Below are positions 5,049 to 50,178 of a DNA stretch of 64,000 nt, piece by piece (the first letter of the stretch is position 1; every line of letters begins with the position of its first letter). The position numbers were made by a program, and so were the translations under genes. Under the pieces are notes generated by a model. It had not been told where the DNA came from and did no database searches. It saw only the letters and a list, made by a program, of their open reading frames with translations. This DNA comes from Mustelus asterias (lineage: Eukaryota), in contig NC_135803.1 in the NCBI RefSeq assembly GCF_964213995.1, forward strand, positions 3,906,001-3,970,000. The letters run 5' to 3'.

Positions 5049-5393
5049 GGGCGGCACGGTAGCACAGTGGTTAGCACTGCTGCTTCAAAGCTCCAGGGAC
5101 CTGGGTTCGATTCCCGGCTTGGGTCACTGTCTGTGTGGAGTTTGCACATTCTCCTCGTGTCTGCGTGGGTTTCCTCCGGGTGCTCCGGTTTCCTCCCACA
5201 GTCCAAAGATGTGCGGGTTAGGTTGATTGGCCATGCTAAAATTGCCCCTTAGTGTCCTGGGATGCGTAGATTAGAGGGATTAGCGGGTAAAATATGTAGG
5301 GATATGGGGGTAAGGCCTGTGTGGAATTGTGGTCGGGGCAGACTCGATGGGCCGAATGGCCTCCTTCTGCACTGTAGGGTTCCTATGATTTCT
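5049..5393 (+). mobile_element. HE1-type V-SINE, full length
   Basis: tRNA-like head (ggtagcacagtggttagc, gggttcgattccc), V-domain tgtgtggagtttgcacattctcc, CR1-like tail gggccgaatggcct. Confidence 0.85.
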
Positions 5394-6797
5394 GTGCCGC
5401 CCATAGAGAGAGATTTTGTTGTGAAACAACACAGATAGTTGATGAAGTCAATACAGTGGATGTTGTCTATATGGATATTAAGAAAATGTTTGCCAATGCA
5501 TCGCATCAAATGTTGTTTAACAAAATTAAGCTTGTGGAATAGGATGGTTGGAGTGCAATAGGATGGTTGGAGTTAAATTGGATAAAAAAACACTTAAATG
5601 AGAGAAAGCAGAGAATGGTGGTGCATGGTCGTCTTTTGGATTCGGTGGCGTTCCCTAAGGGTCACTGCCAGGACCAATGATATTTTTGCTATCTATTTTT
5701 AAATCTATTAATGGGACGTGGGTGTCGCTGCGTCGGCCAACATTCATTGCTTATCCCTAATTACCAGCCGCACCCGCATTCCATTAAAGCGCAAGAAGAC
5801 TCGAAAGAATTCGTGTTCGTCATGAAGGTGTAGTAGGTTTATGGTAGCTTATATCAGCAGCTGTTGTAAGGTTTTGGGGACAGGATTATCGTACTTCCTG
5901 TTTGAAGGGACTTGATTGTTGTTTTCGACAGGAGTGAAAATATCTGTAATGTGATCACATCGTTTGCCCTGGCCTACATTTCTCCATAAAAGACAAAGAA
6001 ACCTCATGAATTTGTAAAGAAGTAGAAAATGCTGGAAATATTCATAAAGATTGGCAGCAGTTGTAGTGAGAGAGAGAGAGAGAAAACAAAACCAATTTAT
6101 TTCGATGACTTTTTTACTCCGTTTTTTCACCTACAAGAAATACTAAGCAATGAGAGCAAGCTCCTCCTCAGTGCGGTTCATTGACAACATCTGTTATCAC
6201 ACTCAGAATGTGAGCCAGCTCATTTCACAGCAGGAGAACAATATGGATGAGTTTTTGTTAATGGATGAGCCGCTGCTGATTTAGTTTCACCTCTGTGCGA
6301 CTCCTGGAATTTCAAATTCGCATGAAATTATGGAATGTTAACCTTTAAATGAATCTTCATCCTGATACTAAATGTCTCTTTTCAGTGCCTGTGTAATGGT
6401 TTGAAATGTTGAATATGGGGCTACTTCCCCGCAGATCGACACCGAACACTTTCTCAATAGATGCACTGACAATAGCAGTCCGACACCTTGCCGGTACTGA
6501 GCATGTACTGAACATGGAACTGACTATCTTCCAAATGTGGTAACGGGTCTTCGGCGTGCACATTTGATCTAACTAAAATGTTAGGGATACAATAGCCCCG
6601 AGCGTTGGAAAATATGACATGAGCCTTCCCTATATGACAGCGAATGAGCGTCAGTGAGATTTGTGTTTGAAAACACTTGGGACTGGTGTGTGAGGTTAAA
6701 TATTCCCGATGTAGGGGGTTGCTTGCAGCAGAGTGCTGTCACTCCGATCCGAAACATCCTTCCCAGTGACTCCTGAAAAACTGTTTCGATTTTCCTG

Positions 6798-10000: not shown

Positions 10001-13000
10001 TATTTCCCTATAACCCCATACATCCACTCTACTGGTTCCCCTGACGCTAAGTGGCAATTTAGCACGGCCACTCAACCTAACCCGCACATGGTTGGACTGT
10101 GGGAGGAAACCGGAACCGAAACCCATGTAGACACGAGGAGAATGTACAAACTCCGCACAGACAGCGACTCAAGCTGGGAATTGAACCCGGATCCCTGGCG
10201 CTGTGAGGCAGCAGCGCTAACCACTGTGCCACCATGCCGTCCCCAACGTTTCCAGTCATCTAGACTCGAAACATTGGCTCTATTCTCTCCCCACAGATGC
10301 TGTCAGACTTACTGAGATTTTCCAGCATTTTCTGTTTTTGAACAAAATTATTGTCGTGGACTGTCACGAACAGTCTGGATATAAACTTAGCAATAAGAAA
10401 ACAGATACAATCACATTAACAATACAATTACCCGGCATCTGCCACTTTCCAAGAATGCGAACTCCTTTTTCAGAAATTTCCGCCCGTAATTGTGAGTTTT
10501 TTTCTGGACTTCCCATAGCCGAACTGTAAAGAGTAATAAAACAAACAAAGAAAAAAGAAATGCAGAAAATGCTCAGTTTGTTTGGCAGCAACTGTGGAGA
10601 AAGAAACTGCGTTATCATTCTGGGTCTCAAAGCCTTCGTCTACATTTCGTTAGAATAAACGGTAATTCGGTGCTGAACCGAATACAATGCTTTATGTTAG
10701 GAGCCAACAAAAGGTTGCGTGACACCTTCTTCTCATAGAATAGATGCCCAGGGCAGTCTTTTCCTGTCATAACCCGAATTGACCATGACAAAGTGGCCAT
10801 TTGGAACAGGGTTATAACGTAGACAGAACCAGCCCGTGTCGATGCGGGAAATGTTTTTAATGAGATTTAGCCGCCAGGTTCCCATATCGCCTCGAATCAT
10901 TTTCGTTCATCCACCTAACCTTGGAAGTGAAAGCCGCAGCGTCATAGTTCTCTGCCTGGCCATAGGCTTCTTCCCTCCTGACCAAATTTATTGCTCTAAA
11001 TCTTGCATCTGTGGGCTGTTATTCGGGGCCTCTGAATTACGGGGAACGGATTGACTCTATCTACCCTGTTCCATGTACCCTCACTTGAAAGATCTCTATG
11101 ATGTAATCTGCACGAGAAAAATGTATGGTGTTTTTTCTCAACTTTGCAAAGAACAATGATACACACGGAATGATATTGTCTTGAAATAAGTGTAACTCTA
11201 TAAATGTGTGGCAGGTTTAGCCAAAGTGGACTCCGCTGGGCGCTAACTATGGTGTTTGCCATTGAAGAAATAAATGGGAACGCAGATTTGCTTCCTAACA
11301 TCACTCTGGGTTACAAGATTTTCGATAGCTGTGGCGCAGCTTCTGAAGGGCTTAAAGCAGCTTTCAATTTACTAAATGGGAAAGACAGAAGTACTTCCAG
11401 TGACACGTGTGCTGGCGTTCCATCAGTGCCCATGATTGTGGGGGATGCCGGATCATCGCAATCTATCGCAGTATCGCGAGTGGTGGCTCGTTTTGCCATT
11501 GGTATGGTAAGATGTGTTAATGCATTTACACGGACGTGGGAAAGGCACGCGCCTGCAATTACGTTTACAAAATTAAAATGCTGCAAGTTCCAGAAATCAG
11601 AAATAATGTCAGAAAATGCTGGAAATACTCAGAAGGTCTAGCAACATCTATGGAGAGAGGGAAAAGTTGGAGGGTGGGGGGGGGGGGGGGGGGGGGGCGG
11701 AAAGCGGGGCGGGGGGGGGGGCGGGGAGGGGTGGGGGGGAGTGTTGGCCCGAAAGGGTAACTCTGTTTCTCTCTCCACGGTTGCTGCAAGTCCTGCTGAT
11801 TATTTCGTCATTCTTTGTATTTATATGAAAATACATTTAACTGTTTCCAGAAGCAATGGGTTTCGATACGTTCTCAGTTTTAGTGCGAAGCATTAGTAGT
11901 GAAATAGTTTTGCGGAAATTGTTGGGATTGAAGGTGGACAAATCTCCAGGTCCTGATAATCTTCATCCCAGAGTTCTTAAGGAAGTGGCTCTGGAAATAG
12001 TAGATCCATTGGTGATTATTTTCTAAAATCATTTGGACACTTGATTGGTTTTGATAGATTGGAGGGTAGCCAATGTAAGCCCGCTATTCAAAAATGGAGG
12101 TTAAGAGAAAACAGTGAGCCTAACGTCGGTCCTGGGGAAGATGCTGGACTCTCTTATCAAGGATCTCATAACTCAGCATTTGGAAGGCAGTGGTAATATC
12201 AGACAAAGTCAGTATAGATTTACAGGAGGGAAATCATGCTTGAGGAATCTATTGGAATTCTTTGAAGATGTAACTCGTAGAATTGACCGAGGAGAACCGG
12301 TGGATGTGTTTTATTTAGACTTTCAGAAGGCTGTCAACAAGGTTTTGCATAACAGACTACTGTGTAAAGTTAAAGCAGATGGGATTGCAGGTAATGTCTT
12401 GTTGTGGATAGAAAGCTGGTTCACAGATAGGAAGTAAAGAATGGGCATAAATGGGTCTTTTTCTGATTCGCAGGCAGTGACTAGTGGGGTTCTGCAGAGA
12501 TCTGTGCTCAGACCCCAACTGTTCACATTATATATCAATGATTTGGAAGAGGGAACTGAATGCAATATCTCCAAATTTTCAGATGATACAAAGTTGGGTG
12601 GGAGGGTGAGCTTTCAAGAGGATGCAGAGATGCTTCAGCGTGATTAGGACAGGTTTAGTGTTTGGGCATATGCATGACAGATGCAATGTAATGTGGATAA
12701 ATGTGAGGTTCTCCATTCTGGTAGCAATAATAGGCAGACAGATTATTGCTTGAAAGTGTGTAAATTGAGGAATGTGGGTATTCAGCGAGAACTTGGTGTC
12801 CACGTGCATCAGTCGCTGGAAGAAAGCACGCAGGTAGAGCAGGATCTGTAAAGGTGCAGTGGACGAGAGTGAGAATAATTCTATAGACGGACCTTGTGTG
12901 CTTCATGTGTGATCAATGAATATAAATGTCTCAGTTCATATATTCTCTCTCTCTCCGCTCCCTCCACCCCAAACAGGTCAGCTACTTCGCTTCATGCGCA

Positions 13001-16000
13001 TGCCTCAGTGATAAGCGTGAGTTCCCAACGTTTTTCAGGACAATTCCCAGCGATACCGTTCAGATGAGAGCTTTAGTCCGGGTTATACACCACTTCCGAT
13101 GGACTTGGATCGGAGCTGTGGCTGAAGATAATGATTATGGCCGATTCGGGATGAGGTCTTTAATTGAAGAGGCTGCGAAGTTTGACATTTGCATCGCCTA
13201 CATCGAATTCCTCTCACCCGGCCGTACCAGAGAAAGGATGCGGCAGGTTGTGAATACTATTAGAAATTCCTCGGCTAAGGTGATGATAATATTCTGCGGA
13301 GAGAGTGACACCATGTCTTTGGTAAGCGAACTCAGAACGCAGAACATTTCCGACATCCAACTGATAGCGAGTGAAGCCTGGGTCACATCATTCCAAATGT
13401 GGACAGCGGAAACTCAGGACATTTTAACGGGAACAATCGGGTTTGGAATCAGGAGAGCGGAAATTGCAGGACTGAGAGAGTTTCTAGTCAAATTCCATCC
13501 TTCCACAGCAGTAGACAATCCATTTGTAGAAGAACTCTGGGGGGAAATCTTTGGCTGTAAAATCTCAAATCAAACTCTGGGAGAAAACATAACAGCTTCC
13601 TTTTACAAGCCATGCACAGGTTTAGAGAACTTGGAGACAATTGAGACTCCATTCACTGATGTATCGCAGTTAAGAATTTCCTACAATGTGTACAAAGCGG
13701 TGTACGCTACAGCGCACGCACTTCATAATTTACAATCGTGCGAAAATGGGAAAGGCCCATTTCTCAATAAAACATGTGGTCAAAAGTCAAACCATCTATC
13801 CTGGCAGGTGAGGAATTGTCTCAAACGCCGATTCATTCTGTAAAACTGAATAATTTCTTATTTCGTCAGAAACATCGCCAAGGGCACACAGGAGACCTGT
13901 TCCAAAGTCGAATGATGGTCATTTATTTAATGCTGCCTTAATCTCTTTGCAGAGAATGCGAAACATAGTCAGAGTTACAGAAGATAATAGTTGTTTTCTC
14001 TTTTGTAAAGCTTTTACGGTACCTGCGGGAGGTACGTTTTACAAACCAGTTTGGGGAGGAAGTAACTTTCGATGAAGACGGAGATCCAATCGCTTCCTAT
14101 GATCTGGTCAACTGGCAGAAGCGCCCTGATTGGTCGGTTGATTTTGTTAAAGTTGGTTATTATGATGCAGCGTTACCGGAAGGAGAAGAACTCGCGTTGG
14201 ATGAAAGTAGATTCGTTTGGCACAAAACAGGGCTAGAAAGGAAAGTAAGCAGATTTTCAATCCACAGAAGACTCGAAAGGATGTCTCTGGTCACTGTTTA
14301 CAGCTGCCCCATAACCGCGTTTATTTGAACTATTACTGTGGATGAGATTGAACCAGACTCCAGCGGTAGCGACCCGGGCAATTCTGGGGTTCAGTTACGC
14401 TTTCCGAGAATTGTTTTGAATGCATGGCGTCAATGTTAGAGTTACTGCTCTTCCTGATATATATTAATGACGTGGACTGCGGTCCTTGCATTTTTTTCAG
14501 CTGGTACAAAGATTCGGAAAACTGTGAAGCTTGATGAACTTCAAAAGGACAAAAACATGTTTGTGGGTTGGGCAATCATGTGACAGATGAAGTTTAGTGC
14601 AGAGAAGTGCGAGGTGATTCATTTTTAGAATGTGGAGTGGCATCTGACAGTGAAGGGAAATACTTTAAAGGAGGTGCAGCAACAGAGGGATCTCGGTGTA
14701 TATGTACAGAAGCCATTGCAATGGCAGGACTAGTTGAGAGACCAGTTAATAAATTATATACTACCTTACTCTTTATTAATAGCGGCATTGAGGAAAGAAG
14801 TCTTCCTGAACTTGTACTAGTTAAGCCTGATCTTGAGATTGCGTTCAGTTCTGAATGCCATACTTGACGAAGGATATGAAGGCTTTGGAGAAAGTAGAGA
14901 GAAGACTTATAAGTATGACTCCAGGGTAAACGCACTGTAGCGACAGGGATAGATTGGAGCGGTTATCTGTTTCTTTAGATAAAAGAAGTCTAAGAAGAGA
15001 CTTGATTGAGGTAATAAAGATTCTCAAGGATATCAACTATATGAATAGTGACAGACTATTCCCTCTCAGTTGCGGATAAAGAGTTCGAGGGCATTGGTTT
15101 AAAATAATTGTCAAACGGATTAAAATGATTTGAAGTCATTGTTTTACGTCCTGAATGTGTTTGGAGTCTGGAATAAACTTCGTGGGAAGATGGTGGCGGT
15201 GGTTTCTATTGAGGTGTTCAAAAGGGAATTTAATTTCTATCTGAAATGAGTGAATGTGCAAAGTTATGGGAATAAGGCTGGGGACTGAGTTTGGATAGAA
15301 ATCTCTTTCAGAGAGCCAGTACAGACTCGATGAGCCGAATAATCTGATTCTGCACTGTAAAGATACAGTGATTCTGTGATTTAGGGTCTGCCGACACATT
15401 TCAGCACCACAAGCAGAAGATCTGACCTTCGCTTGAAAGTGTTTGGGGGTGGCAAACTGAAACCCAATCTGCTGCACCATATCGGTGAGCGCCATTTCAA
15501 CCTATGGTATTAACGATATATTCGCGGCTCTTGACATCGATCAAACTACACTTTAGAACGAATCCTTTCAGAGGGTAACCTTTTGGAATTCAGAATTTGA
15601 AGTAATATGCGACCTGGCGTGCTATAAATATGCATGCGTTAAAAAAATAGGTGAGTTTGAACACAGAGTTCTCGATATTTCCTCAGCAGTGAGGCTTCCA
15701 CAGACCATGCCTGGGTCTGTTGAAGAATACCATTGATAGAGATTGATTGAGATGCTTAATCAGCAAATCCATTGTTGTTATATCATGTGGTTATCAGGGT
15801 GGGAGGAGGCGGACACGGCAGACCAAATTCCTCTTCTGTTTCTATTAATTCCAAAATTCCAACTTGTTTTTCAAACTTCGACATCTCCATGTTAATGCCT
15901 ATTCTATTCTGATTTTAGCATTTCATATTTTGGTTTTCATCGAGGTTTCTTTATTTTGATGAATAGTCAAATGAACATTATTCTCACTATATCTCAACAT

Positions 16001-19000: not shown

Positions 19001-21198
19001 TGGATGGAGTCATGCGCTCGGTGATTCAATTGCAATGGCCGTTCCTTAACTGCCCGCTTTCATGTATTCTGGAAAACAATGTTAAGTTGATGACGATTGA
19101 AAACTTTGCAAAGAATTCGGTTAATCATTATCTGGTCTGCAAACGTACGTTCACAGTTTCAGAGCTACTGTCAAACTGAGCACGTCACTTCCTTAACCCT
19201 TTGACTGGCCAGGACAGTGTTTGCTATCCAGTGTAATTGGCCGTGATATAAGTCTCTTACTTTGACATTTCAGAGGGTAGTTAAGAGTAAAATCACATCC
19301 CTTTGAGTCGCCATGTTTATTTTTTGTGTCACAAGTAGGCTTACATTAACACTGAAAATCCCCCAGTCGCCACACTCCGGCACCTGTTCGGGTACACTGA
19401 GGGAGAATTTAGCATGGCCAATGCACCTAACCAGCACGTCTTTTGGACTGTGAGAGGAAACAGGAGCACCCTGGGGAAACCCAAGTCGGGAATCGAACCC
19501 GGGTCCCTGGCACTGTGAGGCAGTAGTGCTAACAATTATGCCACCGTGGCATCCGAGACCAGACAATGTGGTTAGATTTCCTTCCTTTTACCCAGGCTTT
19601 TAAAATAAATCAATGATGGCTTCGTTGTCATTATACTGAGACTAAATTAATACTTCCGGATATATTAATTAAATTTAGATTCCACCAGCTGCCGTGGTGG
19701 GTTCTGAATGCATCTCTCGAGCGAATTAGCCGGGCCTTTAGATGAGCAGTCCTGTGATATTTCCATTGCAGCAAAGTCATCACCGAAACGATGTATGCAG
19801 TTGCAAAATGAATTTGTGTTTTCATTACATTTTGAGTTTTGAATTGTAACCAAGTTACAGCGGTAACTCAGATAGCAAAGATACAATTATCAATAAAATC
19901 AAAAAGTTTTAATTTCACAGGAAGTTAATATCTGATAAGACTTCCCAGCACCGATTTTACCACTTTGCAAATACTGTATTTTGAGGATAAAATATCGTCT
20001 CTGTTTCCGCAGGTCCCTGTCTCAGTATGTAGTGATAGTTGTGTTCCAGGAACAAGAAGAGCTGTTCGTAAGGGGCAGCCTGTTTGCTGCTTTGACTGTC
20101 TACCGTGCGCTGATGGGGAGATCAGTAACCAGACAGGTAGGCAAAAATGAGAACATCCTTAATATTCCAGCAGGAAACAAGAACGTGGGAATTGGATGTA
20201 CCAAGGCATTGTTTGGATTTGTTATCAGAGCAGCTTTCATTAATTCCGAAAAGTGCATTTGAACTATTATTTGTACATTTCTGTCCACAGATTCTATCGA
20301 ATGTATCAACTGCCCAACAGATTACTGGTCCAATGTTCCAAGAAATCAATGCATTCCGAAAGAGATTGAGTTCCTCTCGTTTCACGACAGTATGGGAATA
20401 ACATTGGTGACAGTTTCACTGTTTGGGGCTTGTATCGCAGGCGCTGTTGCAGCAGTTTTCTTATATTTCATAAACACTCCCATTGTAAGGGCCAACAATT
20501 CTGAATTGAGTTTTCTTCTATTAATCTCATTAATACTCTGCTTTCTCTGCTCCATTGCATTCATTGGACAGCCATCACCATGGTCATGTATGGTGCGTCA
20601 CACTGTGTTTGGAGTTAGCTTTGTTCTGTGTATTTCCTGTATTCTCAGTAAAACTCTGGTGGTCCTGATGGCATTTAAAGCAACCCTACCATCCAGTAAT
20701 GTGATGAAATGGTTTGGACCCAAACAACAACGATCAATTGTCTTTCTCTGCACATTGATACAAATTATAATATGTGTGATCTGGTTGGTGACATCCCCCC
20801 CAGTCCCAATTAAAAACACGGAGTATCAGAGTGATAAAATTATCCTTAAGTGTGACGTGGGTTCCACGGTTTCATTCTGGAGTGTTATAGGTTACATCGG
20901 GCTGTTAGCTTGCACGTGTTTGATTTTAGCATTCCTGGCCCGAGCTTTACCCGACAAGTTCAATGAAGCTAAATTCATTACCTTTAGCATGCTCATCTTT
21001 TTTGCCGTTTGGATAACTTTTATTCCAACCTATGTGAGCAATCCGGGGAAATATGCGGTCGTTGTGGAAATATTTGCAATTTTAGCATCAAGCTACGGAT
21101 TGCTGATCTGTATCTTTGCTCCAAAATGTTACATTATCTTGTTAAAATCAGAAGAGAACACCAAAAAGCACCTGATGGCTAAAAATGTGCAACCTTAG
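6798..21198 (+). CDS. V2R/OlfC-family class C GPCR, gene B, complete six-exon gene (867 aa)
   Basis: Exons 6798-7012, 11215-11506, 12977-13807, 14011-14244, 20013-20136, 20291-21198; all GT-AG; total 2604 nt in one frame. Signal peptide, [44 protein letters not shown], 7TM. Confidence 0.93.
7642..8225 (+). mobile_element. CR1 3' fragment, low divergence
   Basis: Open [13 protein letters not shown]...[10 protein letters not shown]; gggccgaatggcct hairpin; (GTCTTATG)n tail. Confidence 0.88.
8480..9025 (+). mobile_element. CR1 3' fragment
   Basis: [16 protein letters not shown]; same subfamily as 45225-45765. Confidence 0.85.
9339..9678 (+). mobile_element. HE1-type V-SINE, full length
   Basis: Near-identical to 5049-5393. 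Confidence 0.85.
9911..10340 (+). mobile_element. Penelope pLTR-like hammerhead element split by an HE1 SINE
   Basis: agttCTGACGAAgggtcat [SINE] gtcatctagactcGAAAcattggct...; GTCAT repeated at 9926-9930 and 10255-10259. Confidence 0.65.
9931..10243 (-). mobile_element. HE1-type V-SINE
   Basis: Reverse-complement head, V-domain and tail. Confidence 0.8.
11215..11506 (+). CDS. Gene B exon 2
   Basis: 292 bp; gcag|G...ATG|gtaaga; [26 protein letters not shown]. Confidence 0.92.
11575..11830. mobile_element. Inverted pair of pLTR-like arms around a poly-G tract
   Basis: agaaaatgctggaaatactcag...gcaacatctatggagagag on the left and its approximate reverse complement (ctctctccacggttgctgc...tgctgattatttc) on the right. 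Confidence 0.55.
11900..12850 (+). mobile_element. CR1 RT fragment
   Basis: [24 protein letters not shown] with stops. Confidence 0.85.
12977..13807 (+). CDS. Gene B exon 3
   Basis: 831 bp; acag|GTCAGCTAC...TGGCAG|gtgagg; [24 protein letters not shown]. Confidence 0.93.
14011..14244 (+). CDS. Gene B exon 4 (not in ORF track)
   Basis: 234 bp; taaag|CTTTTACGGTAC = [36 protein letters not shown]...ERK|gtaagc. Confidence 0.9.
14380..15380 (+). mobile_element. Old CR1 fragment
   Basis: Degenerate RT and 3' end (ctcgatgagccgaataatctgattctgcactgt). Confidence 0.65.
16383..18695 (+). mobile_element. 5'-truncated CR1 LINE in gene B intron 4
   Basis: RT motifs [14 protein letters not shown]; TTCTTTG tail; TGGA TSD; empty site visible in the gene A paralogous intron at about 1110-1135. 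Confidence 0.9.
20013..20136 (+). CDS. Gene B exon 5 (cysteine-rich domain)
   Basis: 124 bp; [16 protein letters not shown]...CCFDCLPC; GT-AG. Confidence 0.93.
20291..21198 (+). CDS. Gene B exon 6 (7TM domain)
   Basis: 908 bp to TAG; class C 7TM motifs. Confidence 0.93.
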
Positions 21199-28480: not shown

Positions 28481-30627
28481 AGGGTGCAGACGGCTGGTGT
28501 TGCAGGCCCATTGGGTAGGAACAAAGTGATTTATCACCTTGGGTGGGCAGGGTGGGAGTTGTGCTAATGCTGCGCTGGGGACACTTTCCCAAAGGTCTTT
28601 GAATCAATCTGCATTAAAAATAACGTCTGTCCACTCTCGCCCGCCTGCTCTCTCCAACCATATTACGGCGCAAGGGCTGCGTATTGCCCGCGTCCATTGC
28701 TTGATGACAACGTCACTTGAGTCTTAGTTGTTTATTTTAAAATGGCTGTTCATTTCGTCGTTCGCCCACCTACCGTATTATCGATGACAACTCCAGACCC
28801 CTGCCCCCTCTCCGTAAACAGGCCACCCGTCCCTGGTTTAATTGGACTGAATAGTCAGTTTCTGTGTTGTGATTTTAAGCTGTTCTATATGTGCTGACCT
28901 CCTGTTGCTGATGACGTAACTGAGGAGAAGCATGTAAGTGACCATTAGGAAATGGTTAAGGACAACATTGGGAGACGATGGAAGACCCTCTGTTATTGGG
29001 ACGAGAAGCCATTACTTTAGATGCTGAGGCTACAATTGTCTTGACGAGCAGAAGAGCCTTTCCGTGCAGCCGGATAATGGGGGAAGGAGATTAGTATGAT
29101 GGACCACATCAAACTAACTTCGCTGGGTGTTTTCTACAGGCCGCCCAATAGTGACAGGGATGTTGAGGAGCAGATAGGGAATAGATCCTGGAGAGATGTA
29201 GGAATAACAGGGTTGTCGTGATGGGAGACTTTAATTTCCCAAACATCGATTGGAATATCGCTAGGGTAAGGGGTCTGGTCGGGGAGGAGTTTGTTAGGTG
29301 TGTTCAGGAGGGGTTCCTGACACAGCATGTGGATAAGCCTACAAGAGGAGAGGCTGTACTCGATCTGGTACTGGCTAATGAGCCTGGACAGGTGTCGGAT
29401 ATCTCAGTGGGGGAGCATCTTGGGGATAGTGATCATAACTCCATCTCCTTTACGCTAGCATTGGAAAGAGATAGGATCAGGAAAGCTAGGAAAGTGTTTA
29501 TCTGGAGTAAGGGGAAATATGAAGCCATCAGGCAGGAGATTAGAGGCGTAAATTGGAAGGAGGCATTCTCGAGGAAAAGTAATGAAGTAAGGTGGCAGAT
29601 TTTCAAGGAATGTTTGTCTGGAGCTCGGCATGACAATGTTCGGATGAGACAGGGAGGTGTTGGTAGGTTACGGGAACCATGGTGCATGAAAGCTGCGCTG
29701 AACCTGGAGAGAAAGAAAAGGAAAGCGTACAAAAGGTTCAGAGAGCTCGGCGATGATAGGGATCTAGATGAGTATATGGCTTGTAGGAAGGGACTTAAGA
29801 AAGAAATTAGGAGAGCCAGAAGGGGTCATGAGAAGGCCTTGGCAGGTAAGATTAAAGAGAACCCTAAGGCGTTCTATAAATATGTGAAGAGTAAAAGGAT
29901 GAGACGTGAAGGAATAGGACCTATAAAAGGTGAAGGTGAGAAAGTCTGTACAGAACTGGAAGAAATAGCAGAGGTGCTTAATGAATATTTTACCTCGGTA
30001 TTCACGGTGGAAAAAGACTTGGGTGGTTGTACTACAGGATTGAGGTGGACTGAAAAGATTGAGTATGTGGACATTAAGAAAGAGGATGTGTTGGAAATTT
30101 TGAATAGCATCAAGATAGACAAGTCGCCGGGATCAGATGGGATGTACCCCAGGTTACTGTGGGACGTGAGGGAAGAGATTGAAGAGCGTCTGGCAATGAC
30201 GTTTGCGTCGTTGATGGAGACGGGAGAGGTTCCGGAGGATTGGAGGATTGCAGATGTGATTCCTATATTCAAGAAAGGGAATAGGGATAGCAAAGGAAAT
30301 TACCGACCGGTGAGTCTAACCTCAGTGGTTGGTAAGTTGATGGAGAAGATCCTGAGGGACAGGATTAATGAACATTTAGAGAAGTTTAGTATGCTCAAAA
30401 GTAGTCAGCACGGATTTGTCAAAGGCAAATCGTGCCTTACGAGCCCGGTGGAGTTCTTTGAAAATGTGACTAAACACATTGACGAAGGAAAAGCGGTAGA
30501 TGTGGTTTACATGGACTTCAGCAAGGCGTTCGATAAGGTCCCCCATGCAAGACTTCTCGAGAAAGTGCGAGGGCATGGGATCCAAGGGGCTGTTGCCTTG
30601 TGGATTCAGAACTGGCTTGCCTGCAGA

Positions 30628-30803
30628 GCTGTAGAGATTTGCATTCTAATTAGTATTCTGTAACTTGATTTCTGTGTCTGTGCACTGTTGGAGCACAGAT
30701 ATCCACTCCATCTGACGAAGGAGCTGTGCTCCGAAAGCTTATGGTATTTGCTACCAAATAAACCTGTTGGACTTTAACCTGGTGTTGTGAGACTTCTTAC
30801 TGT
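30628..30803 (+). mobile_element. Short Penelope-like (pLTR-derived) element with minimal hammerhead ribozyme motif
   Basis: 176-bp insert flanked by 13-bp direct repeat GCTTGCCTGCAGA (30615-30627 / 30804-30816); absent from the sister CR1 at about 49107. Confidence 0.8.
30708..30744 (+). ncRNA. Minimal hammerhead ribozyme motif
   Basis: CCAT-CTGACGA-A-GGAGC tgt GCTCC-GAAA-GC-TT-ATGG: conserved core, 5-bp stem II, stem I CCAT/ATGG, palindromic AGCT in place of helix III. Confidence 0.7.
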
Positions 30804-32909
30804 GCTTGCCTGCAGAAGGCAGAGAGTGGTTGTAGACGGGTCTTTTTCTGAATGGAGGTCGGTCACCAGTGGAGTGCCCCAGGGATCTGTTCTGAGACCC
30901 TTGCAGGTTGTCATTTTCATAAATGACCTGGATGAGGAAGTGGAGGGATGGGTTGGTACGTTTGCCGACGACACGAAGGTTGGTGGTGTTGTGGATAGGT
31001 TGGAGGGATGTCAGAAGCTGCAGCGTGAAATAGATAGGATGCAAGACTGGGCGGAGAAGTGGCAGATGGACTTCAACCCAGATAAATGTATAGTGGTCCA
31101 TTTTGGCAGGTCAAATGGGATGAAGGAGTATAATATCTAGGGTAAGACTCTTATCGGTGTAGAGGATCAGAAGGACCTTGGGGTCCGGATCCATAGGACT
31201 CTTAAATCGGCCTCGCAGGTAGAGGAGGTGGTTAAGAAGGCGTATGGTGTGCTGGCCTTCATCAATCGAGGGATTGAGTTTAGGAGTCGGGAGATAATGA
31301 TGCAGCTTTATAAGACCCTCGTCAGACCCCACTTGGAGTACTGTGCTCAGTTCTGGTCGCCTCATTACAGGAGGGTTGTGGAAATGATTGATAGGGTGCA
31401 GAGATGATTTACAAGGATGTTGCCTGGATTGGTTGGCATGCCTTATGAGGGTAGGTTGATGGAGCTCGGTCTTTTCTCCTTGGAGAGACGAAGGATGGGA
31501 GGTGACCTGATAGAGGTGTACAAGATGTTGAGAGGTATAGATCGGGTGGATTCTCGGAGGCTTTTTCCAAGGGCTGAAATGGCTGCTACGAGAGGACACG
31601 TGTTTACGGTGCTGGGGAGTAGGTACAGAGGAGATGTCAGGGGTAAGTTTTTCACTCAGAGCGTGGTCGGTGAGTGGAATCGGCCGTCGTCAGTGGTGGT
31701 TGAGGCAAACTCGATAGGGTCTTCTAAGAGACTTCTGGATGAGTACATGGGACCTAATAGGATTGAGAGTTATAGGTAAGCCTATATATAAGCCTTGGTA
31801 GGTAGGGACATGACCGGCGCAACATGTGGGCCGAAGGGCTTGTTTGTGCTGTATTTTTTCTATGTTCTATGTTCTAAACCAAAAAGAATGATTAACGAGG
31901 GCAAAACGGGTCAGTGGAGCATCCAAATTCGCCGCCATTATTGTTCAGAAGTACGAATAAAACTGAGAGCAAGGAAGAATTCAAAAGGAAGGTTACAGAA
32001 GACGTGGGGACAGGTCTGGAAATGTTGGAACTGGAGTTTGGAAATGGTATTGGAGTTATTGAAGCCGGAAGAGTTGCTGACGGAAGATAGGTCACCTTGT
32101 TAGTGGGGAGTGAACACTGGTGATCACCAATTGGCAAGACGATTTGTGGATGAGCAAGCCAATCAGACAACCAGTGCAATGGTGTGTCCCGAGCGCATGT
32201 TTTCAGGAGAGGGAGATAATTACGTCTTTGAAAGCGAAGGGAGAGCGCAGGAGGATGACGTTGAGATAGAGGGCCAGCCATGACCATATTAAATGGCGTA
32301 GCAGGCCGAAAGGGCTGATTCGCCTAATACTGCTCCTATTTTCGATGTTCCTATGTTTGTACGTGCCCGAAGAAAGTAAAAGGTTGCCTGATAATTGGAA
32401 TGGGAATTGCGTGATTAATGGTTGAGTATGAAGGGGGTCGAGAGGACAGCTGCGAAAGCTCAAAGAGAGATTAAGCTTGGAGAGACCAAGGGGGAAAAGA
32501 AGAGAATCTGTAAGGCAATGGTTATTTGTGGATCGTGAGTTTGAGAATTGGAAGGCTCTGCACCCGGGGCCGGAGGACATGCAGGGACCACTAGAACAGC
32601 TATTGTGAAGAAAACGATCAACACGTTGCTTGAAGAGGTAATGTGGAATGATGACGTGAAAAGCTGTTCACAGTGGAAACTGAGTGTGTCTATCCTTACC
32701 CCCTAGAATCAGAAAAAAACAGTACACAGCTTTGGCTGAATAGAGTGAAGCATGATGTTGCTTAAAATAGCCAAGAACAATCTGAAAATGAACAGTTAAA
32801 TGATCACGCTCAAATTACACTTGAATTTACGTCGCAAAGTTTGAGGGGGAGGGGGTAATGAAAGGGGCAGCGCAAGAGGAGTTGCAATGCAAGTCATTAA
32901 TTGCCGAGA

Positions 32910-35263: not shown

Positions 35264-36171
35264 CTATAATGTTTCTGTTCTACTCATCATTTGCTTTCTC
35301 GAGTTCTCTTCTGGCTTGAGTAAGATAATGTAACATTTTGAAGCAAAGATACAGATCAACAACCCAAAGCTTGATGCTAAAATTGCGAATATTTCCACAG
35401 CCACCGTATATTTTCCAGGAGTGCTCACGTAAGCGGGAATGAAAGTTACCCAAACTGCAAAAAATATGAGCATGCTGAAAGTTATAAATTTAGCTTCATT
35501 GAACTTGTCCGGTAAAGCTCGGGCAAAGAAAGCTAAAATTAAACACACAGAAGCTAATATCCCGATGTAACCTAACACACAGCAGAAAGCAACTGTAGAA
35601 CCCACATCACACTCGAGGATAATTTTAGAGCTTTGATACTTGGTGTTTTTAACTGGGACTGGGGGAGATGTCAGCAGCCAGATCACACATATTACAATTT
35701 GAATCAATGTGCAGAGAAAGACAATTGATCGTTGTTGTTTGGGTCCAAACCATTTCATCACATTACTGGATGGTAGAGTTGTTTTAAATGCCATCAGAAC
35801 CACCAGAGTTTTACTAAGGATACAGGAAATACACAGAACAAAGCTAACCCCAAACACAGTGTGACGCACCATACATGACCATGGTGATGGCTGTCCAATG
35901 AATGCAATGGAGCAGAGAAAGCAGAGTATTAATGAGATTAACAGAAGAAAACTTAATTCCGAATTGTTGGCCCTTACGATGGGAGTGTTGATAAAATATA
36001 AGAAAACTGCTGCAACAGCTCCTGTGATACATGCTCCAAACAGTGAAACCGCCGCCAGTGTTATTCCCAGAATGTCTTGAAAGGAAACGAACTCAATTTC
36101 TTTTGGAAGGCACTGATCTCTTCGGCTATTGGACCAGTAATCTGTAGGGCATTTGATGCATTCTGTCGAAC
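35264..36171 (-). CDS. Gene C exon 6 (7TM)
   Basis: 908 bp; CPTDYWSN...C, 7TM, ends SRTETL*. Confidence 0.93.
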
Positions 36172-39100
36172 CTGTGGAAGAATTGGGTAAAGTCAGCATG
36201 AATTGCCGAATTAAATATTGTGCGAGGTCATTCTGATATGCCAGTCGCTTTAGCCCAGTTGGCTAAACGGCGTGTTCGTGATGTAGAGGGAGGTCAACAG
36301 CACGCGTTTACATCCCCCTACAGTCTGAGATTAGTCTCTTTAACGTTGCACCTCGCCTGTGGTATACTGAACCTCAGGTTATTTCACCGACATTTGCATT
36401 ATGAGTCGGTACTGGATGTTCATTCTTCTTCTTTAAGATGTTAATGCTGTTTACCTGTTTGGTTGCTAATCTCTCCGTCAGAACATGGCAAACAATCAAA
36501 GCAACAGATTGGTTGCCCTTTCCGAGTGCCCTTTCTTGTACCCACAGGACAAATGCCACTGCAGACTGATATTGGTACCTGTGGAGATAAAAATAATCCA
36601 CTCTGAAACACAGTCTGGGTTTAGAACTTTATCTTAATATGGATGCATTCATTTTGCAAGGTACCTCGTTTGCCTTGGTTATACAACTTTTATAGCGCCT
36701 GAATCTTATCTGTTGGCTCGCATATCTGTGGAAAGGCTGAAGTTGGTGATAAAATTCGATCGGTTTTGGGATGTCATTTTGACTAATGAATATAATTAAT
36801 TTCATAAATTGTATATTCAATGTATTCAATAATTTTTAGACTTCATCAGTATATTTCCTCTTGTTCAATTCAGGACTAATACATTTATTTCCCAGTTTAA
36901 TTCGGTTTTTGCAACGCACAATTTAGAATTTGGAAAAATAAAAAACAAACTAATAAAACCGTAGACAAATGATAAAGATAAAGAAGCCGTTGGTATGGAG
37001 AAAGGTTGTGGAACAGACACTCTTTTACAAATCACCCAGATGTGAGATTTGTGAGGAGGAACTCCAATTATCCCTGATCACACCAGCAAGGCTCTGACGT
37101 AGGGTCATCTACACTCGAAACGTTGGCTCTATTCTCTCCCCACAGACGCTGTCAGACCTGCTGAGATTTTCCAGCATTTTGTGTTTTTGTTTCAGATTAA
37201 GGTAGTGATGCGCCTTGTTCAAAACCTGCCGTTGCAGTGCTCGGTAAATACTGTAGATAGCTGAACTTACAGGGTTTGTACTTGCCACGAATGAAGGAAT
37301 AATGTGAAATGTTCGAGCAAAGATAGGGGATGACTTGGAAGGGAGTTTGGCGATCATGGGCTTGTCATTATTGCCCCTCGATTGAATGTGGCTAGTTTTT
37401 CGAGATGCAGCGGGAGAAGATTTGGCGAGCTATTGTTTTGCATTCGATTGATGGTTCAGTTTCCACTGTGCGCTATGGGTAGAATAAGTGATTGTTTCGT
37501 CTAGTGGGTGAGATGCGTCAGAGACATGTACAGGGTGAAACTGAAAGTAAAATGTAATTGTGAAATTGTGTAGTTCTGCAGTCAGTAGAAAAATCCTTAC
37601 CCTGCTTTCGGATCCATGCCAAATGATTTTGCTTTCATTCAGGACGAATTCTTCGCCTTCAGGCAATGCGGCATCGTAATATCCAACTTTAACAAAATGC
37701 ACCGATCCATCTGCGCGCTGCTGCCAATTTATCAAGTCATAGGAAGCGATAGGATCTCCGTTCTTATCGAACCGTATTTCCTCGCCTAACTGGTTTGTGA
37801 AGCGGACCTCCCTCAGGTAGTGCAAGACCTTTAAACACAGAAAATCAATTCCATTCTGAAGAACAATAAATCATCCAATGGTCCCTAGCCTGTCTGATCA
37901 ATTATTGCAACACAAATAAAAAATTTGACATGGCTATGAGAAGGATATGTATCATGTTATTCTAACTTCCAAGGAACATTTTAAATAAATATGTTGTGAA
38001 GAAATAAAGGCTATATTTTGCCTCGCTTAGATGATCAGATCTTTCCTCACCTGCCAGGGGAGAATACGAGGTAGTTGGCCACACGTTTTGTTGAGAAATG
38101 GGCCTTTCCCATTTTCACAAGACTTTAAATTATGGAGAGCGTGAGCTATCGCATACACTGCTTTGTACACATTGTACGAAATTCGTAATTGTGACACATC
38201 GGTGTATGTATTTTCAATGGTCTCCAAGCTTTCTAAACCTGTACACGGTTTGTAAGGGGATGAGTTTTCTTCCAGACTCTGATTGGAAATTTTAATGCTG
38301 CATCCAAAAACAGCCCGCCAGAGATCTTCCACAAAGGGATTGTCTGCTGTTCTGGAAGGATGGAGTTTGACTAGAAACTCCTTCAATCCCGGAATTTCCG
38401 CTCTCCTGATTCCGAATCCGATTGTTCCTGAAAATATTTGCCGTGTTTCTTTTGTCCATAATCTGACGGATGTGATCCAGGCTTCACTTGCAATCAACTG
38501 AATGTCGGTTACGTTGTGCCGTCTGAGTTCTATTGCCAAAGATTTTGTATCGCGCTCAAGGGAGAATATTATGAGCACCTTAGCAGAAGACCTTTGAATA
38601 GTCTCTACAACCCGAAGCAGCTTAATTCTGGTGCTGTCTGGAGACATGAATTCAATAAAGGCGATACATGTTTCGAACTTGGAAACTTCTTCAATAAAGG
38701 ACATTGTCGCAAATCGGCCATATTCACTGTCTTCAGTTACAATCCCAACCCAAATCCATTTGAAGCGCTGCACCAGCCTCACTAACGCTTTGACTTGAAC
38801 GCCGTCACTGGGAATTGTCCTGAAGAAAGTTGGGAATTCGCGCTTGTCACTCAGACAGGTACAGGACGAAGAGTAGCTGACCTAGATGTTAACACACATT
38901 TTCAGTTATAACACAAAAACACATTTGTAATTCAATGGGTCGTGCGTCTAAACAAGGAAAAGTTCAAGCATTGTTCCGGGACCAGCAATTATTTCATTGA
39001 GTATAAAGTTCCAAAATTGTTTAGCAAGGGGAATTGAACCAGAGAACAGAACGTAAAAAAAACTCGATGATCATCAGAAAAATAGCAAAAACTTGGGACA

Positions 39101-45765: not shown

Positions 45766-46006
45766 ATTAAAATGACAAGCCCCAGAAAACTTTAAGTCTC
45801 GGTTGTGGACTGAATGAAGATTTTCTGCAAAGCGATTACGCAGCTGCATTAGATCTCCATATTGTTGCGGCTGGTGAGCAGCCAATGCAATATCATAAAT
45901 TGAAGGAAGTGCGGGAAGGGTGAAAATTAGAAAAAAATTCAATGACATTTTCAGGGGAGAGATTTCAGGGAGAGAGCAGGAAATAGCAAATATGAAGTCA
46001 TCAATG

Positions 46007-49000
46007 GAACTGCAGCTCGAGGATCTTCGTCTGGTTAGGGAAAATGAGGAGGTGATAGACAGGAGCTATCAGAAGGTGGTCACACCGGGGCCACGGGAGG
46101 CAGACAAGTGGGTAACGTCCAGGAAGGGGAAAGCTCGGGTGATAGAGAGCACCCCGGTGGATGTGCCCCTTCACAATAAGTACTCCTGTCTGAGTACGGC
46201 TGGGGAGAACAGCCCACCTGGGGGAAGCAGCATTGGCCGTGTCTCTGGAGCAGAGTCCGGGCCTGTAACTCAGAGGGCTAAGGAAAGGAGGAGGAAGACA
46301 GTATTAATCGGAGGCTCGACAGTAAGGGGGTCGGACAGGCGTTTTTGCAGAGGCAGATGGGAGTCTCGGATGGTGGTCTGCCTCCCTGGTGCCGGGATCC
46401 GGGATGTCTCTGATCGCAAGCCAGATATCCTGAGGTGGGAGGGAGAGGGGCCAGAGGTCGTGGTACATATTGGTACCGGTGACATAGGTAGGAAGACGGA
46501 AGGGGTCATGAAAAGAGACTATAGGGAGTTAGGTAGACAGTTGGGAAGGAGGAACGCACAGGTAGTGATCTCAAGATTGCTGCCCGTGCCACGGGAACGT
46601 GAGAGCAGGAATGGAGTGAGGTGGAGGATGAATGCGGGGCTGAGGGACTGGTGCAGGGGGCAGGGATTCAGGTTCCTGGATCATTGGGACCTCTTTAGGG
46701 GAAGGTGTGACGTGTACAAATAAGACAGGTGGCACTTGAATCCCAGGGGGACGAATATCCTGGCAGGAAAGTTGGCTAAGGCTACTGGGGAGACTTTAAA
46801 CTGGAAAGGTTGGGGGGAGGGAATCGTGATGAGGTGACTGAGAGCGAGGAGGTTAGCCTGCAAATAGAGAAGGATTGTTCACAGTGTAAGAGGGAGAATA
46901 GACGGTGATGGAGAAGGGGAGAGCTCAGACCAAAGGTTTGAGATGTGTCTATTTTAACGCCAGGAGTGTAGTGAATAAAGTGGATGAGCTTAGAGTGTGG
47001 ATCGATGCTTGGAAGTGTGATGTGGTGGCCATTACGGAGACTTGGGGACAGGGACAGGACTGGATACTTCAGGTGCCGGGTTTCAGATGTTTCAGAAAGG
47101 ACAGAGAGGGAGGCAAAAAGGGGGGGGGGGAGTGGCACTGCTGATCAGGGATAGTGTCACAGCTGTAGAGAAGGTGGATTGTCTACCGAGGGATTGTCTA
47201 CTGAGTCTCTGTGGGTGGAAGTTCGGAGCGGAAAGGGGTCGATAACTTTGCTGGGTGTTTTACAAAGAACAAAGAACAAAGAACAGTACAGCACAGGAAA
47301 CAGGCCCTTCGGCCCTCCAAGCCTGTGCCGCTCCTTGGTCCAACTAGACCAATCGTTTGTATCCCTCCATTCCCAGGCTGCTCATGTGACTATCCAGGTA
47401 AGTCTTAAACGATGTCAGCGTGCCTGCCTCCACCACCCTACTTGCCAGCGCATTCCAGGCCCCCACCACCCTCTGTGTAAAAAACGTCCTTCTGATATCT
47501 GAGTTATACTTCGCTCCTCTCACCTTGAACACGTGACCCCTCGTGATCGTCACCTCCGACCTGGGAAAAAGCTTCCCACTGTTCACCTTATCTATACCCT
47601 TCATAATCTTGTACACTTGTTTTACTACAGGCCGCCCAATAGTAACAGGGATGCTGAGGAGCAGATAGGGAAACAGATCCTGGAGAGATGTAGGAATAAC
47701 AGGGTTGTCATGATGGGATACTTTAATTTCCCAAACATCGATTGGAATATCCCTAGGGTAAGGGGTTTGGATGGGGAGGAGTTTGTTAGGTGTGTTCAGG
47801 AGGGTTTCCTGACACAGCATGTGGATAAGCCTACAAGAGGAGAGGCTGTACTCGATCTGGTACTGGCTAATGAGCCTGGACAGGTGTCGGATCTCTCAGT
47901 GGTGGAGCATCTTGGGGATAGTGATCATAACTCTATCTCCTTTACGCTAGCATTGGAAAGAGATGGGATCAGGCAAGCGAGGAAAGTGTTTATCTGGAGT
48001 AAGGGGAAATATGAAGCCATCAGGCAGCAGATTAGAGACGTAAATTGGAAGGAGGGATTCTCGAGGAAAAGTACTGAAGTAAGGTGGCAGATTTTCAAGG
48101 AATGTTTGTCTGGAGTTCTGCATGACATCATTCCGATGAGACAGGGAGGTGTTGGTAGGTTACGGGAACCGTGGTGCACGAAAGCTGCGCTGAACCTGGA
48201 GAGAAAGAAAAGGAAAGTGTACAAAAGGTTCAGAGAGCTAGGCAATGATAGGGATCTAGATAAGTATACGGCTTGTAGGAAGGGACTTAAGCAAGAAATT
48301 AGGAGAGCCAGAAGGGGTCACGAGAAGGCCTTGGCAGTTAAGATTAAGGAGAACCCTAAGGCGTTTTATAAGTATGTGAAGAGTAAAAGGATGAGATGTG
48401 AAGGAATACGACCTATAAAAGGTGAAGGTGAGAAAGTGTGTGCAGGACCGGAAGAAATAGCAGACGTGCTTAATGAATATTTTACCTCGGTATTCACGGT
48501 GGAAAAAGACCTGGTAGGTTGTACTACAGGATTGGGGCGGACTGAAAAGATTGAGTATGTGGACATTAAGAAAGAGGATGTGTTGGAAATTTTGAATAGT
48601 ATCAAGATAGATAAGTCGCCGGGACCGGATGGCTTGTACCCCAGGTTACTGTGGGAGGCGAGCGAAGAGATTGCAGAGCCTCTGGCGATGATCTTTGAGT
48701 CGTCGATGGAGACGGGAGAGGTTTCAGAGGATTGGAGGATTGCGGATTTAGTTCCTATATTCAAGAAAGGGAATAGGGATAGCACAGGAAATTACCGACC
48801 GGTGAGTCTAACCTCAGTGGTTGGTAAGTTGATGGAGAAGATCCTGAGGGACAGGATTTATGAACATTTAAAGAAGTTTAGTATGCTCAAACGTAGTCAG
48901 CACGGCTTTGTCAAAGGCAAATCGTGCCTTACGAGCCTGGTAGAGTTCTTTGAGAATGTGACTGAACACATTGACGAAGGAAAAGCAGTAGATGTGGTTT

Positions 49001-50178
49001 ACATGGACTTCAGCAAGGCGTTCGATAGGTCCCCCCATGCAAGACTTCTCGAGAAAGTGAGAGGGCATGGGATCCAAGGGGCTGTTGCCTTGTGGATTCA
49101 GAACTGGCTTGCCTGCAGAAGGCAGAGAGTGGTTGTAGACGGGTCTTTTTCTGAATGGAGGTCGGTCACCAGTGGAGTGCCTCAGGGATCTGTTCTGGGA
49201 CCCTTGCTGTTTGTCATTTTCATAAATGACCTGGATGAGGAAGTGGAGGGATGGGTTGGTAAGTTTGCCGACGACACGAAGGATGGTGGTGTTGTGGATA
49301 GGTTGGAGGGATGTCAGAAGCTGCAGCGTGACGTAGGTAAGATGCAAGACTGGGCGGAGAAGTGGCAGATGGACTTCAACCTGGATAAATGTGCAGTAGT
49401 CCATTTTGGTAGGTCAAATGGGATGAAGGAGTATAATATCAAGGGTAAGACTCTTAGCAGTGTAGAGGATCAGAAGGACCTTGGGGTCCGGGTCCATAGG
49501 ACTCTTAAATCGACCTCGCAGGTAGAGGAGGTGGTTAAGAAGGCGTATGGTGTGCTGGCCTTCATCAATCGAAGGATTGAGTTTAGGAGTCTGGAGATAA
49601 TGATGCAGCTTCATAACATCCTCGTCAGACCCCACTTGGAGTATTGTGCTCAGTTCTGGTCGCCTCATTACAGGAGGAATGTGGAAATGATTGAAAGGGT
49701 GCAGAGAAGGTTTACAAGGATGTTGCCTGGATTGGTTGGCATGCCTTATGAGGATAGGCTGAGGGAGCTCGGTCTTTTCTCCTTGGAGAGACGAAGGATG
49801 AGAGGTGACCTGATAGAGGTGCGCAAGATGTTGAGAGGTACAAATTGGGTGGCTTCTCGGAGGCTTTTTCCCAGGGCTGAAATGGCTGCTATGAGAGGAC
49901 ACAGGTTAAAGGTGCTGGGGAGTAGGTACAGAAGAGATGTCAGGGGTAAGTTTTTCACTCAGAGGTTGGTGGGTGAGTGGAATCGGCTGCCGTCAGTGGT
50001 GGTTGAGGCAAACTCGATAGGGTCTTTTAAGAGACTTCTGGATGAGTACATGGGACTTAATAGTATTGAGGGTTATAGGTAAGCCTATATATAAACCTAG
50101 GTAGGTAGGAACATGACCGGCGCAACTTGGAGTCCGAAGGGCCTGTTTGTGCTGTATTTGTTCTATGTTCTGTGTTCT
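46007..50178 (+). mobile_element. Near full-length CR1 LINE (ORF1 SGNH esterase-like, ORF2 APE endonuclease + reverse transcriptase)
   Basis: ORF1 VLIGGSTVRG...CLPGA...VHIGTGDI. ORF2 [58 protein letters not shown]. (TTCTATG)-type tail; possible AATG TSD. Confidence 0.93.
47264..47617 (-). mobile_element. CR1 3' fragment nested in the ORF2 endonuclease of the long CR1
   Basis: (AAAGAAC)n tail on +; TGTTTTAC duplicated at 47256-47263 and 47618-47625. Confidence 0.85.

Follow-up and report, generated by a model that had tools for sequence, protein, structure and literature searches.

A 176-bp insert in the genome of the shark Mustelus asterias, read in an initial annotation as a retrozyme-like element carrying a hammerhead ribozyme, is best explained as a stub of a Penelope-like element (PLE), and we regard this explanation as very probable: a truncated PLE end lies in a preferred spaced palindrome, where the element's GIY-YIG endonuclease would have nicked both strands and its reverse transcriptase (RT) would have stopped after copying some 180 nt from uncut RNA. 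The insert lies in a window of 64,000 nt (assembly GCF_964213995.1, contig NC_135803.1, positions 3,906,001 to 3,970,000), the whole stretch of DNA analysed here; coordinates are those of the window, on the plus strand, unless a locus or strand is named.

Insertion site and host element

The insert interrupts a CR1-type long interspersed nuclear element (LINE) whose part aligned to a sister copy spans 29128..31877. Its flanks carry the direct repeat GCTTGCCTGCAGA, with copies at 30615-30627 and 30804-30816 and 176 bp (30628..30803) between them. The annotation had called this a perfect 13-bp target-site duplication. The repeat is indeed present at both ends, but GCTT at 30804-30807 also reads as the next four bases of the element's tail, so the true duplication measures 9-13 bp, the insert is 176-180 bp long and the element may reach 30807. 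The cutting register of the family suggests that the duplicated bases are 30617-30627 (11 of 12). The two halves of the target palindrome, assigned from the sequence and from motif statistics, are CTGGC (30612..30616) and GGCAG (30818..30822).

As the annotation had it, the sister CR1 near 49107 is empty, holding one repeat copy and no insert in the alignment, which places the insertion after the CR1. Host and sister are 93.9% identical over 2563 bp. The insertion falls within the RT codons N-W-L-A-C-R-R-Q-R-V of the host, which has two stop codons besides the insert and is therefore not otherwise intact; the sister (47503-50082) retains an open frame of 859 codons for APE and RT, and its empty CTG-N16-CAG site lies at 49104..49125. 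The claim of recent mobility held as well: exact copies of the window's 42-nt hammerhead variant number 2061 genome-wide, and one copy of the insert elsewhere is identical at 176/176 positions.

The insert is the end of a protein-coding Penelope-like element

Judged by its sequence relationships, the insert is almost certainly a 5'-truncated PLE end. Close copies abound in the same genome, and all six other full-length matches run upstream into more PLE sequence. In locus L007, an open reading frame (ORF) upstream of the insert-like sequence codes for an RT thumb together with a GIY-YIG-type endonuclease, and its stop codon precedes the insert's first base by 128 nt. The same join of ORF and pseudo-long terminal repeat (pLTR) recurs in thirty loci retrieved via the upstream part, L032-L060 among the carriers, and L061 shows the full layout pLTR-ORF-pLTR, with pLTRs at 264-699 and 5156-5591 that are 97% alike. 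The linkage to an RT/GIY-YIG ORF that the annotation had proposed to look for genome-wide by BLAST thus exists. The insert itself and the L062 pLTR are 95.1% identical over 185 nt. In a case of reverse nesting, the PLE ORF of L061 is interrupted in its N-terminal part by a CR1 (1056-2917).

The encoded protein has the hallmarks of its class. Pfam recognised an RT domain in the L063 protein (RVT_1, E=1.6e-7), and the predicted fold (mean pLDDT 88.8) returned telomerase RTs as its top five Foldseek matches; a sequence search of the PDB gave no match better than E 0.006. The C-terminus contains a GIY-YIG-type core, VVYLIRC..C..WYI(G/V)ET, with downstream R, H, H, E and N aligned to homologs, as well as CCHH residues, and Pfam detected GIY-YIG in the homolog P0020. 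Between RT and endonuclease lies a CX4CxxC linker, PCHSNLCKTC, conserved in the 22 rows displayed. By the criterion of PMC8557442, this linker, rather than an RT tree, points to the Neptune or Nematis type. Homologs are 84-94% identical in sharks and about 40% identical in turtles, amphibians and invertebrates.

Family 3' ends fall into two classes, one tail-less (near 0) and one with a tail of about 40 nt, at the end of which lies the first ATG of the long ORF in full-length copies (L061). The window copy, which we take for the pLTR end of a Neptune-type element, belongs to the tail-less class; its 3' junction (30799..30807) marks the upstream one of two likely RT start sites.

Could the 176 bp nevertheless be a discrete, non-autonomous, self-cleaving retrozyme or short interspersed nuclear element (SINE)-like family mobilised in trans? 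The insert does lack an ORF, is flanked by a duplication and contains a complete hammerhead core, and vertebrate non-LTR retrozymes have been reported to derive from PLE pLTRs (bioRxiv 10.64898/2026.07.22.740005). Such a family would, however, share a 5' end. In our copy sample (99 of the first 100 among the 2061 matches listed, all on contig C1), 78 of 126 arms start upstream of the insert's start, 49 within the ORF, and a single one within 3 nt of it, which makes the 176-bp length an ordinary truncation. PLE arm 5' ends are scattered over 2.5 kb; a pile-up at insert position 75 is partly a BLAST artefact, the reference differing just upstream. Nor did we find the tandem arrays that the annotation had proposed to look for: two same-strand pLTR pieces occur in 3 of 87 blocks, and none of the 87 contains a short tandem unit with two hammerheads. 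Helix I, moreover, has 4 bp as compared to the canonical 6. A separate non-coding family, largely refuted by these data, was rejected on the single shared 5' end and the missing two-hammerhead tandem, and its probability is very small.

Insertions of the family favour a spaced palindrome

Duplications were called for 142 blocks, of which 8 lay at a locus edge, 45 had no duplication and 89 had one; filtering by length and score left 81, and dropping three with a repeated duplication string left 78. Target duplications measured 12-13 bp in 55 of the 78. Centred on the duplication, we observed CTG-N16-CAG as a perfect match at 26 of the 78 sites and with five of six bases at a further 19, against 0.18% and 1.9% in the flanks. 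The spacing is narrow: a 17-base spacer accounted for nine perfect sites and any other spacer for 0-3, compared to 26 for spacer 16. The resulting family profile reads CTG(N)C - 12 bp - G(N)CAG, to which the window site conforms perfectly.

The signal persisted under different ways of counting. A position-ordered subset from C1 gave 13 perfect sites out of 46, and 10 out of 43 without the CR1 hot-spot sites described below. A register-free test found both half-sites in 43 of 81 cases as compared to a background of 1.5%, and a test independent of the duplications placed 33 of 69 CAG matches at offsets 13-16 behind 62 tail-less ends. From these sequence statistics, it appears nearly beyond doubt that the palindromic target preference of this PLE family is real.

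This rule also bears on whether the window fragment was mobilised by the PLE protein at all. Retroposition by the CR1 or other LINE machinery, or recombination, might be considered given that the insert sits inside a CR1 and has 4 nt of microhomology at its 3' junction. Yet its 3' end belongs to the tail-less PLE class, a LINE-type tail is absent, and both site and duplication obey the PLE family rule; on these grounds, we rejected CR1-mediated retroposition, whose likelihood we consider negligible.

In the literature searched, which leaves out Repbase, most subscription papers and supplements, we found neither a spaced-palindrome target nor a CR1 hot spot for PLEs, and the excerpt of PMC12910113 holds nothing on targets. 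The target rule is thus apparently undescribed.

A conserved CR1 motif is an insertion hot spot

One CR1 RT motif, W-L-x-x-R-x-Q-x-V, is encoded in either orientation at nine of the 78 sites; its codons for Trp and Gln provide the half-sites CTG and CAG. Two of the three rows dropped for a repeated duplication string were further cases. Genome-wide, the tail-less element end was joined to the CR1 motif at the expected distance 596 times (many of these junction strings are identical, and some may be segmental duplicates), and only once when the distance was shifted by 11 bases. The hot-spot junctions listed involve several CR1 subfamilies and spacers, different element ends and both orientations, and include two more hits within the window's own CR1 subfamily. 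Since several CR1 subfamilies and element ends are represented, many of these junctions are independent.

With 596 junctions at one CR1 position and 9 of 78 sampled sites there, the element might be thought to target CR1 specifically, the palindrome being a by-product of a single site. However, the 69 of 78 sites that lie elsewhere keep the motif (17 of them perfect), as do those of the C1 sample after removal of the hot spot. We rejected CR1-specific targeting on account of this enrichment at non-CR1 targets; it is improbable in the extreme, though a shade less so than a separate 176-bp family.

Further CR1 positions were hit in individual loci. L151 (G000:C1:186.41 Mb) holds an insertion at a second RT palindrome (window 49151), some 47 bp further downstream than the main hot spot, and in L054, L058 and L128, insertions cluster at another, more 3' CR1 position whose site reads ATG-N16-CAT; L054 and L058 share the same duplication with different arm lengths. 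The sister CR1 of the window contains empty CTG-N16-CAG sites at 47141, 49104 and 49151.

Head-to-head copies and a model for insertion

Sixty insertions were head-to-head, with both 3' ends facing outward. In 57 of these, one outer end was tailed and the other tail-less (P = 3e-14 versus 50:50). In the inverted insertions, the two half-sites of the target were about equally strong. A one-sided tail had been described qualitatively before (PMC8557442). The two family ends match the pair of RT start sites demonstrated in vitro with a PLE of the anole (PMC11167929), whose protein, modelled as a dimer, cuts and extends both strands and starts at two adjacent internal sites.

We propose that a single endonuclease domain, probably part of a dimer, recognises each half-site. 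The two strands would be nicked about 12 bp apart, in each case two bases 5' of CAG; this would leave 12-nt 3' overhangs, and both 3' ends could prime reverse transcription, one at each RNA start site. If the two cDNAs were then joined at short inverted repeats, head-to-head copies would result; a single primed end followed by an early stop would yield a one-armed stub such as the window copy. Going by the sequence patterns, we consider a concerted double nick with twin priming to be probable. The fuller version, in which CTGNC-N12-GNCAG is recognised by a GIY-YIG dimer that breaks both strands in concert with a 12-nt stagger and lets both 3' ends prime on one RNA, one per start site, has in our estimate slightly better than even chances. 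A dimer is inferred as the simplest agent that would make the double nick.

Many head-to-head junctions lie near insert positions 63-75 (window 30694-30710; for example in L009, L010, L012-L015 and L018), at a GATATC palindrome and at the arm GGAGCACAG, which is complementary to hammerhead stem II. The data suggest joining of cDNAs through the element's own inverted repeats. Separately, L067, L072 and L083/L084 are head-to-head pairs with 0.1-0.5 kb of non-PLE sequence in between, possibly captured DNA or RNA.

A different course of events would accept the palindrome preference and attribute it to a nickase that works as a monomer, recognises the same half-site on two occasions and nicks sequentially, with inverted copies arising by fold-back or self-priming. 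Homing GIY-YIG enzymes are monomeric nickases, PLE duplications have been described as variable in length (PMC8557442), and self-priming on an antisense template was proposed earlier for PLE palindromic junctions (PMC3846280); besides, spacers of 16 and 17 both occur, and junctions often lie at short inverted repeats inside the pLTR. Fold-back of a single cDNA, however, would not produce tailed and tail-less outer ends in 57 of 60 insertions, and the narrow stagger and the balanced half-sites in inverted insertions likewise speak against it. We judge this course unlikely.

Several points weigh against the concerted double nick and the target rule on which it builds. The palindrome is a preference, not a strict specificity, as two thirds of the sites lack the perfect motif. 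Among the 134 blocks not at a locus edge, 45 lack a duplication; some of these are split blocks and the rest are unexplained. Nick positions were read from duplications and are blurred by microhomology by 1-4 bases, and the redundancy among the 596 hot-spot junctions counts here as well. The window copy has a single arm and is, by itself, silent on twin priming. As to the parent element, none of the three long loci examined had a wholly intact ORF, L062 and L063 being frameshifted or rearranged, and Pfam gave no GIY-YIG match in the L063 protein itself. Finally, the anole element prefers AT-rich ATT sites (PMC11167929) and Neptune elements have been described as microsatellite-biased (PMC8557442). 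Because these preferences differ from that of the shark family, the CTG-N16-CAG rule cannot be extended to PLEs as a class.

The hammerhead is predicted to misfold in the window copy

The annotation's claim of a full minimal hammerhead core was borne out. A type I motif spans 30708..30744: a 4-bp stem I formed by CCAT (30708-30711) and ATGG (30741-30744), the core CTGACGA (30712-30718) with an extra A (30719), a 5-bp stem II, GGAGC/GCTCC (30720-30732), the GAAA of the core (30733-30736) and a palindromic AGCT (30736-30739) replacing helix III. A scan for the core pattern gave one match in the window and none in 100 shuffles. The motif agrees, as the annotation had noted, with the Penelope type of minimal hammerhead with palindromic helix III (PMC4209133), by whose numbering the self-cleavage bond, intact in this copy, is predicted at 30740..30741, after CUU. 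Comparison of 29500-32000 with Rfam, a check of the kind that had been proposed, gave no family match at E up to 10. A five-codon upstream ORF (30740-30760, ATG at 30741) starts at the predicted cut.

An isolated 45-nt segment folds as a hammerhead, with both stems at a probability of 0.95 or more. Within the 176 nt, the stems pair with a probability of at most 0.001: an upstream arm (30685..30698), part of inverted repeat I3, is complementary to 30724-30737, pairs with it in the folds and is predicted to sequester stem II, so that the active fold costs 7.2 kcal/mol. Folding of the whole insert was not unusual (z -1.45), and unconstrained co-folding of two 45-mers produced a stem II-swapped duplex and no AGCU helix. 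As for the flanking hairpins reported initially, tggta/tacca overlaps the 3' strand of stem I, and the two cannot form together.

With respect to conservation among genomic copies, 14 variants picked by hand from several subfamilies all had an unchanged core and kept the extra base before stem II and G10.1-C11.1, with N7 and loop II varying. In stems I and II, 96% of alignment cells were paired, with a change from U-A to C-G in the stem I pair beside the core in 6 of the 14, and the covariation score exceeded those of all 500 shuffles and all slid controls; given that the variants are related and were chosen by a hammerhead-shaped pattern, these are few independent events and modest evidence. 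Other PLE subfamilies share the same downstream pLTR motif and carry different hammerheads, with stem I CAC/GUG, a longer stem II and A at position 17 (L052:2684-2730, L081, L098, L110, L026:964-1010 and L007:1077-1121).

Copies with 5' ends at -4, -2, 0, +2 and +4 from the cut numbered 70, 136, 466, 118 and 806: the local peak at the cut is exceeded by the count at +4, and both are inflated by fold-back junctions; by eye, one junction type made up 44 of the 100 rows listed at +4 and another 25 of 100 at the cut. Since the window copy spans the predicted cut site, its RNA template was uncut there, and since the window also holds no second hammerhead that could serve as a partner, self-cleavage in cis is unlikely for this copy, for which folding predicts a misfolded RNA. 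The window copy carries the hammerhead as a passenger. For it to cut in the parent element, a dimer through AGCU or the help of a protein would be required. Hammerhead mutants of the anole PLE inserted normally, and its cleavage needed protein (PMC11167929).

Other content of the window

The sister CR1 region (45899-50082) comprises a piece of a GDSL-esterase-like ORF1 followed by the APE/RT frame. The window also harbours a cluster of class C G protein-coupled receptor (GPCR) genes with 7tm_3 and ANF_receptor exons, located at 2642-3577, 12926-13843 and 20263-21198 and, on the minus strand, at 35264-36262, 38027-38881 and 62704-63636; these are presumably V2R/OlfC-type chemoreceptors. The sole Rfam match in the whole window, tRNA-like, lies at 59653-59726 (minus strand) and is probably a SINE head.

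Comparison with known systems and implications

In mammalian L1 twin priming, both cut target ends prime cDNA, which gives rise to an inverted part within one duplication, and the second primer lands at variable internal sites. The shark arms, in contrast, both start from two sites that are fixed and lie about 40 nt from each other.

Metazoan PLE hammerheads (PMC4209133) share with the shark motif the 4-bp helix I, the extra base before stem II, G10.1-C11.1 and the palindrome in place of helix III; they, too, are mostly single dispersed copies from truncated PLEs, and in fish they occur in Neptune, Poseidon and Xena. They differ in stem II, which has 5 bp and a 3-nt loop here and 7-8 bp in the Schistosoma families. 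An example hammerhead from that work had no activity as a monomer and low activity as a dimer (PMC4209133). Short, non-coding metazoan non-LTR retrozymes likewise carry type I hammerheads, are PLE-related and have duplications of more than 4 bp; unlike the window copy, a solo truncation without a fixed unit, they form tandem units with one hammerhead each that are expressed as circles (PMC7229834; bioRxiv 10.64898/2026.07.22.740005).

Neptune and Nematis PLEs with a C-terminal endonuclease (PMC8557442) resemble the shark family in their single ORF, telomerase-like RT, CX2-5CxxC linker and GIY-YIG with CCHH, as well as in heavy 5' truncation, inverted 5' copies and a 30-40-bp tail that is often one-sided. 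They are biased towards microsatellites and have variable duplications, whereas those of the shark family measure 12-13 bp and are centred in a spaced palindrome. The green anole element PAc (PMC11167929) likewise starts reverse transcription at two internal sites, by which the tail is defined, and cuts and extends both strands; for PAc, the hammerhead is dispensable for insertion in vitro and a dimer has been modelled. PAc belongs to the Poseidon clade, inserts at AT-rich ATT sites and has an ORF that starts inside the hammerhead, in contrast to the ATG at the tail end and the palindromic target of the shark element. So far, activity in vitro has been obtained for a single PLE protein, and the authors of that work leave what follows first-strand synthesis unvalidated (PMC11167929).

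The window copy is a dead stub of a known class; both its hammerhead and its truncation are ordinary for PLEs, and a hammerhead in the pLTR and the layout of such insertions are already known. What the family adds are thousands of young insertions that translate into a defined substrate (CTG-N16-CAG with a 12-bp stagger) and into the prediction of one primer per RT start site. The CR1 hot spot shows how a retrotransposon can, through its conserved codons, become a sink for another one across the genome. If true, a dimer with twin priming would account through a single mechanism for the head-to-head copies, for tails on one side only and for the CR1 hot spot, and the palindrome would be the first two-sided target to be defined for any vertebrate PLE.

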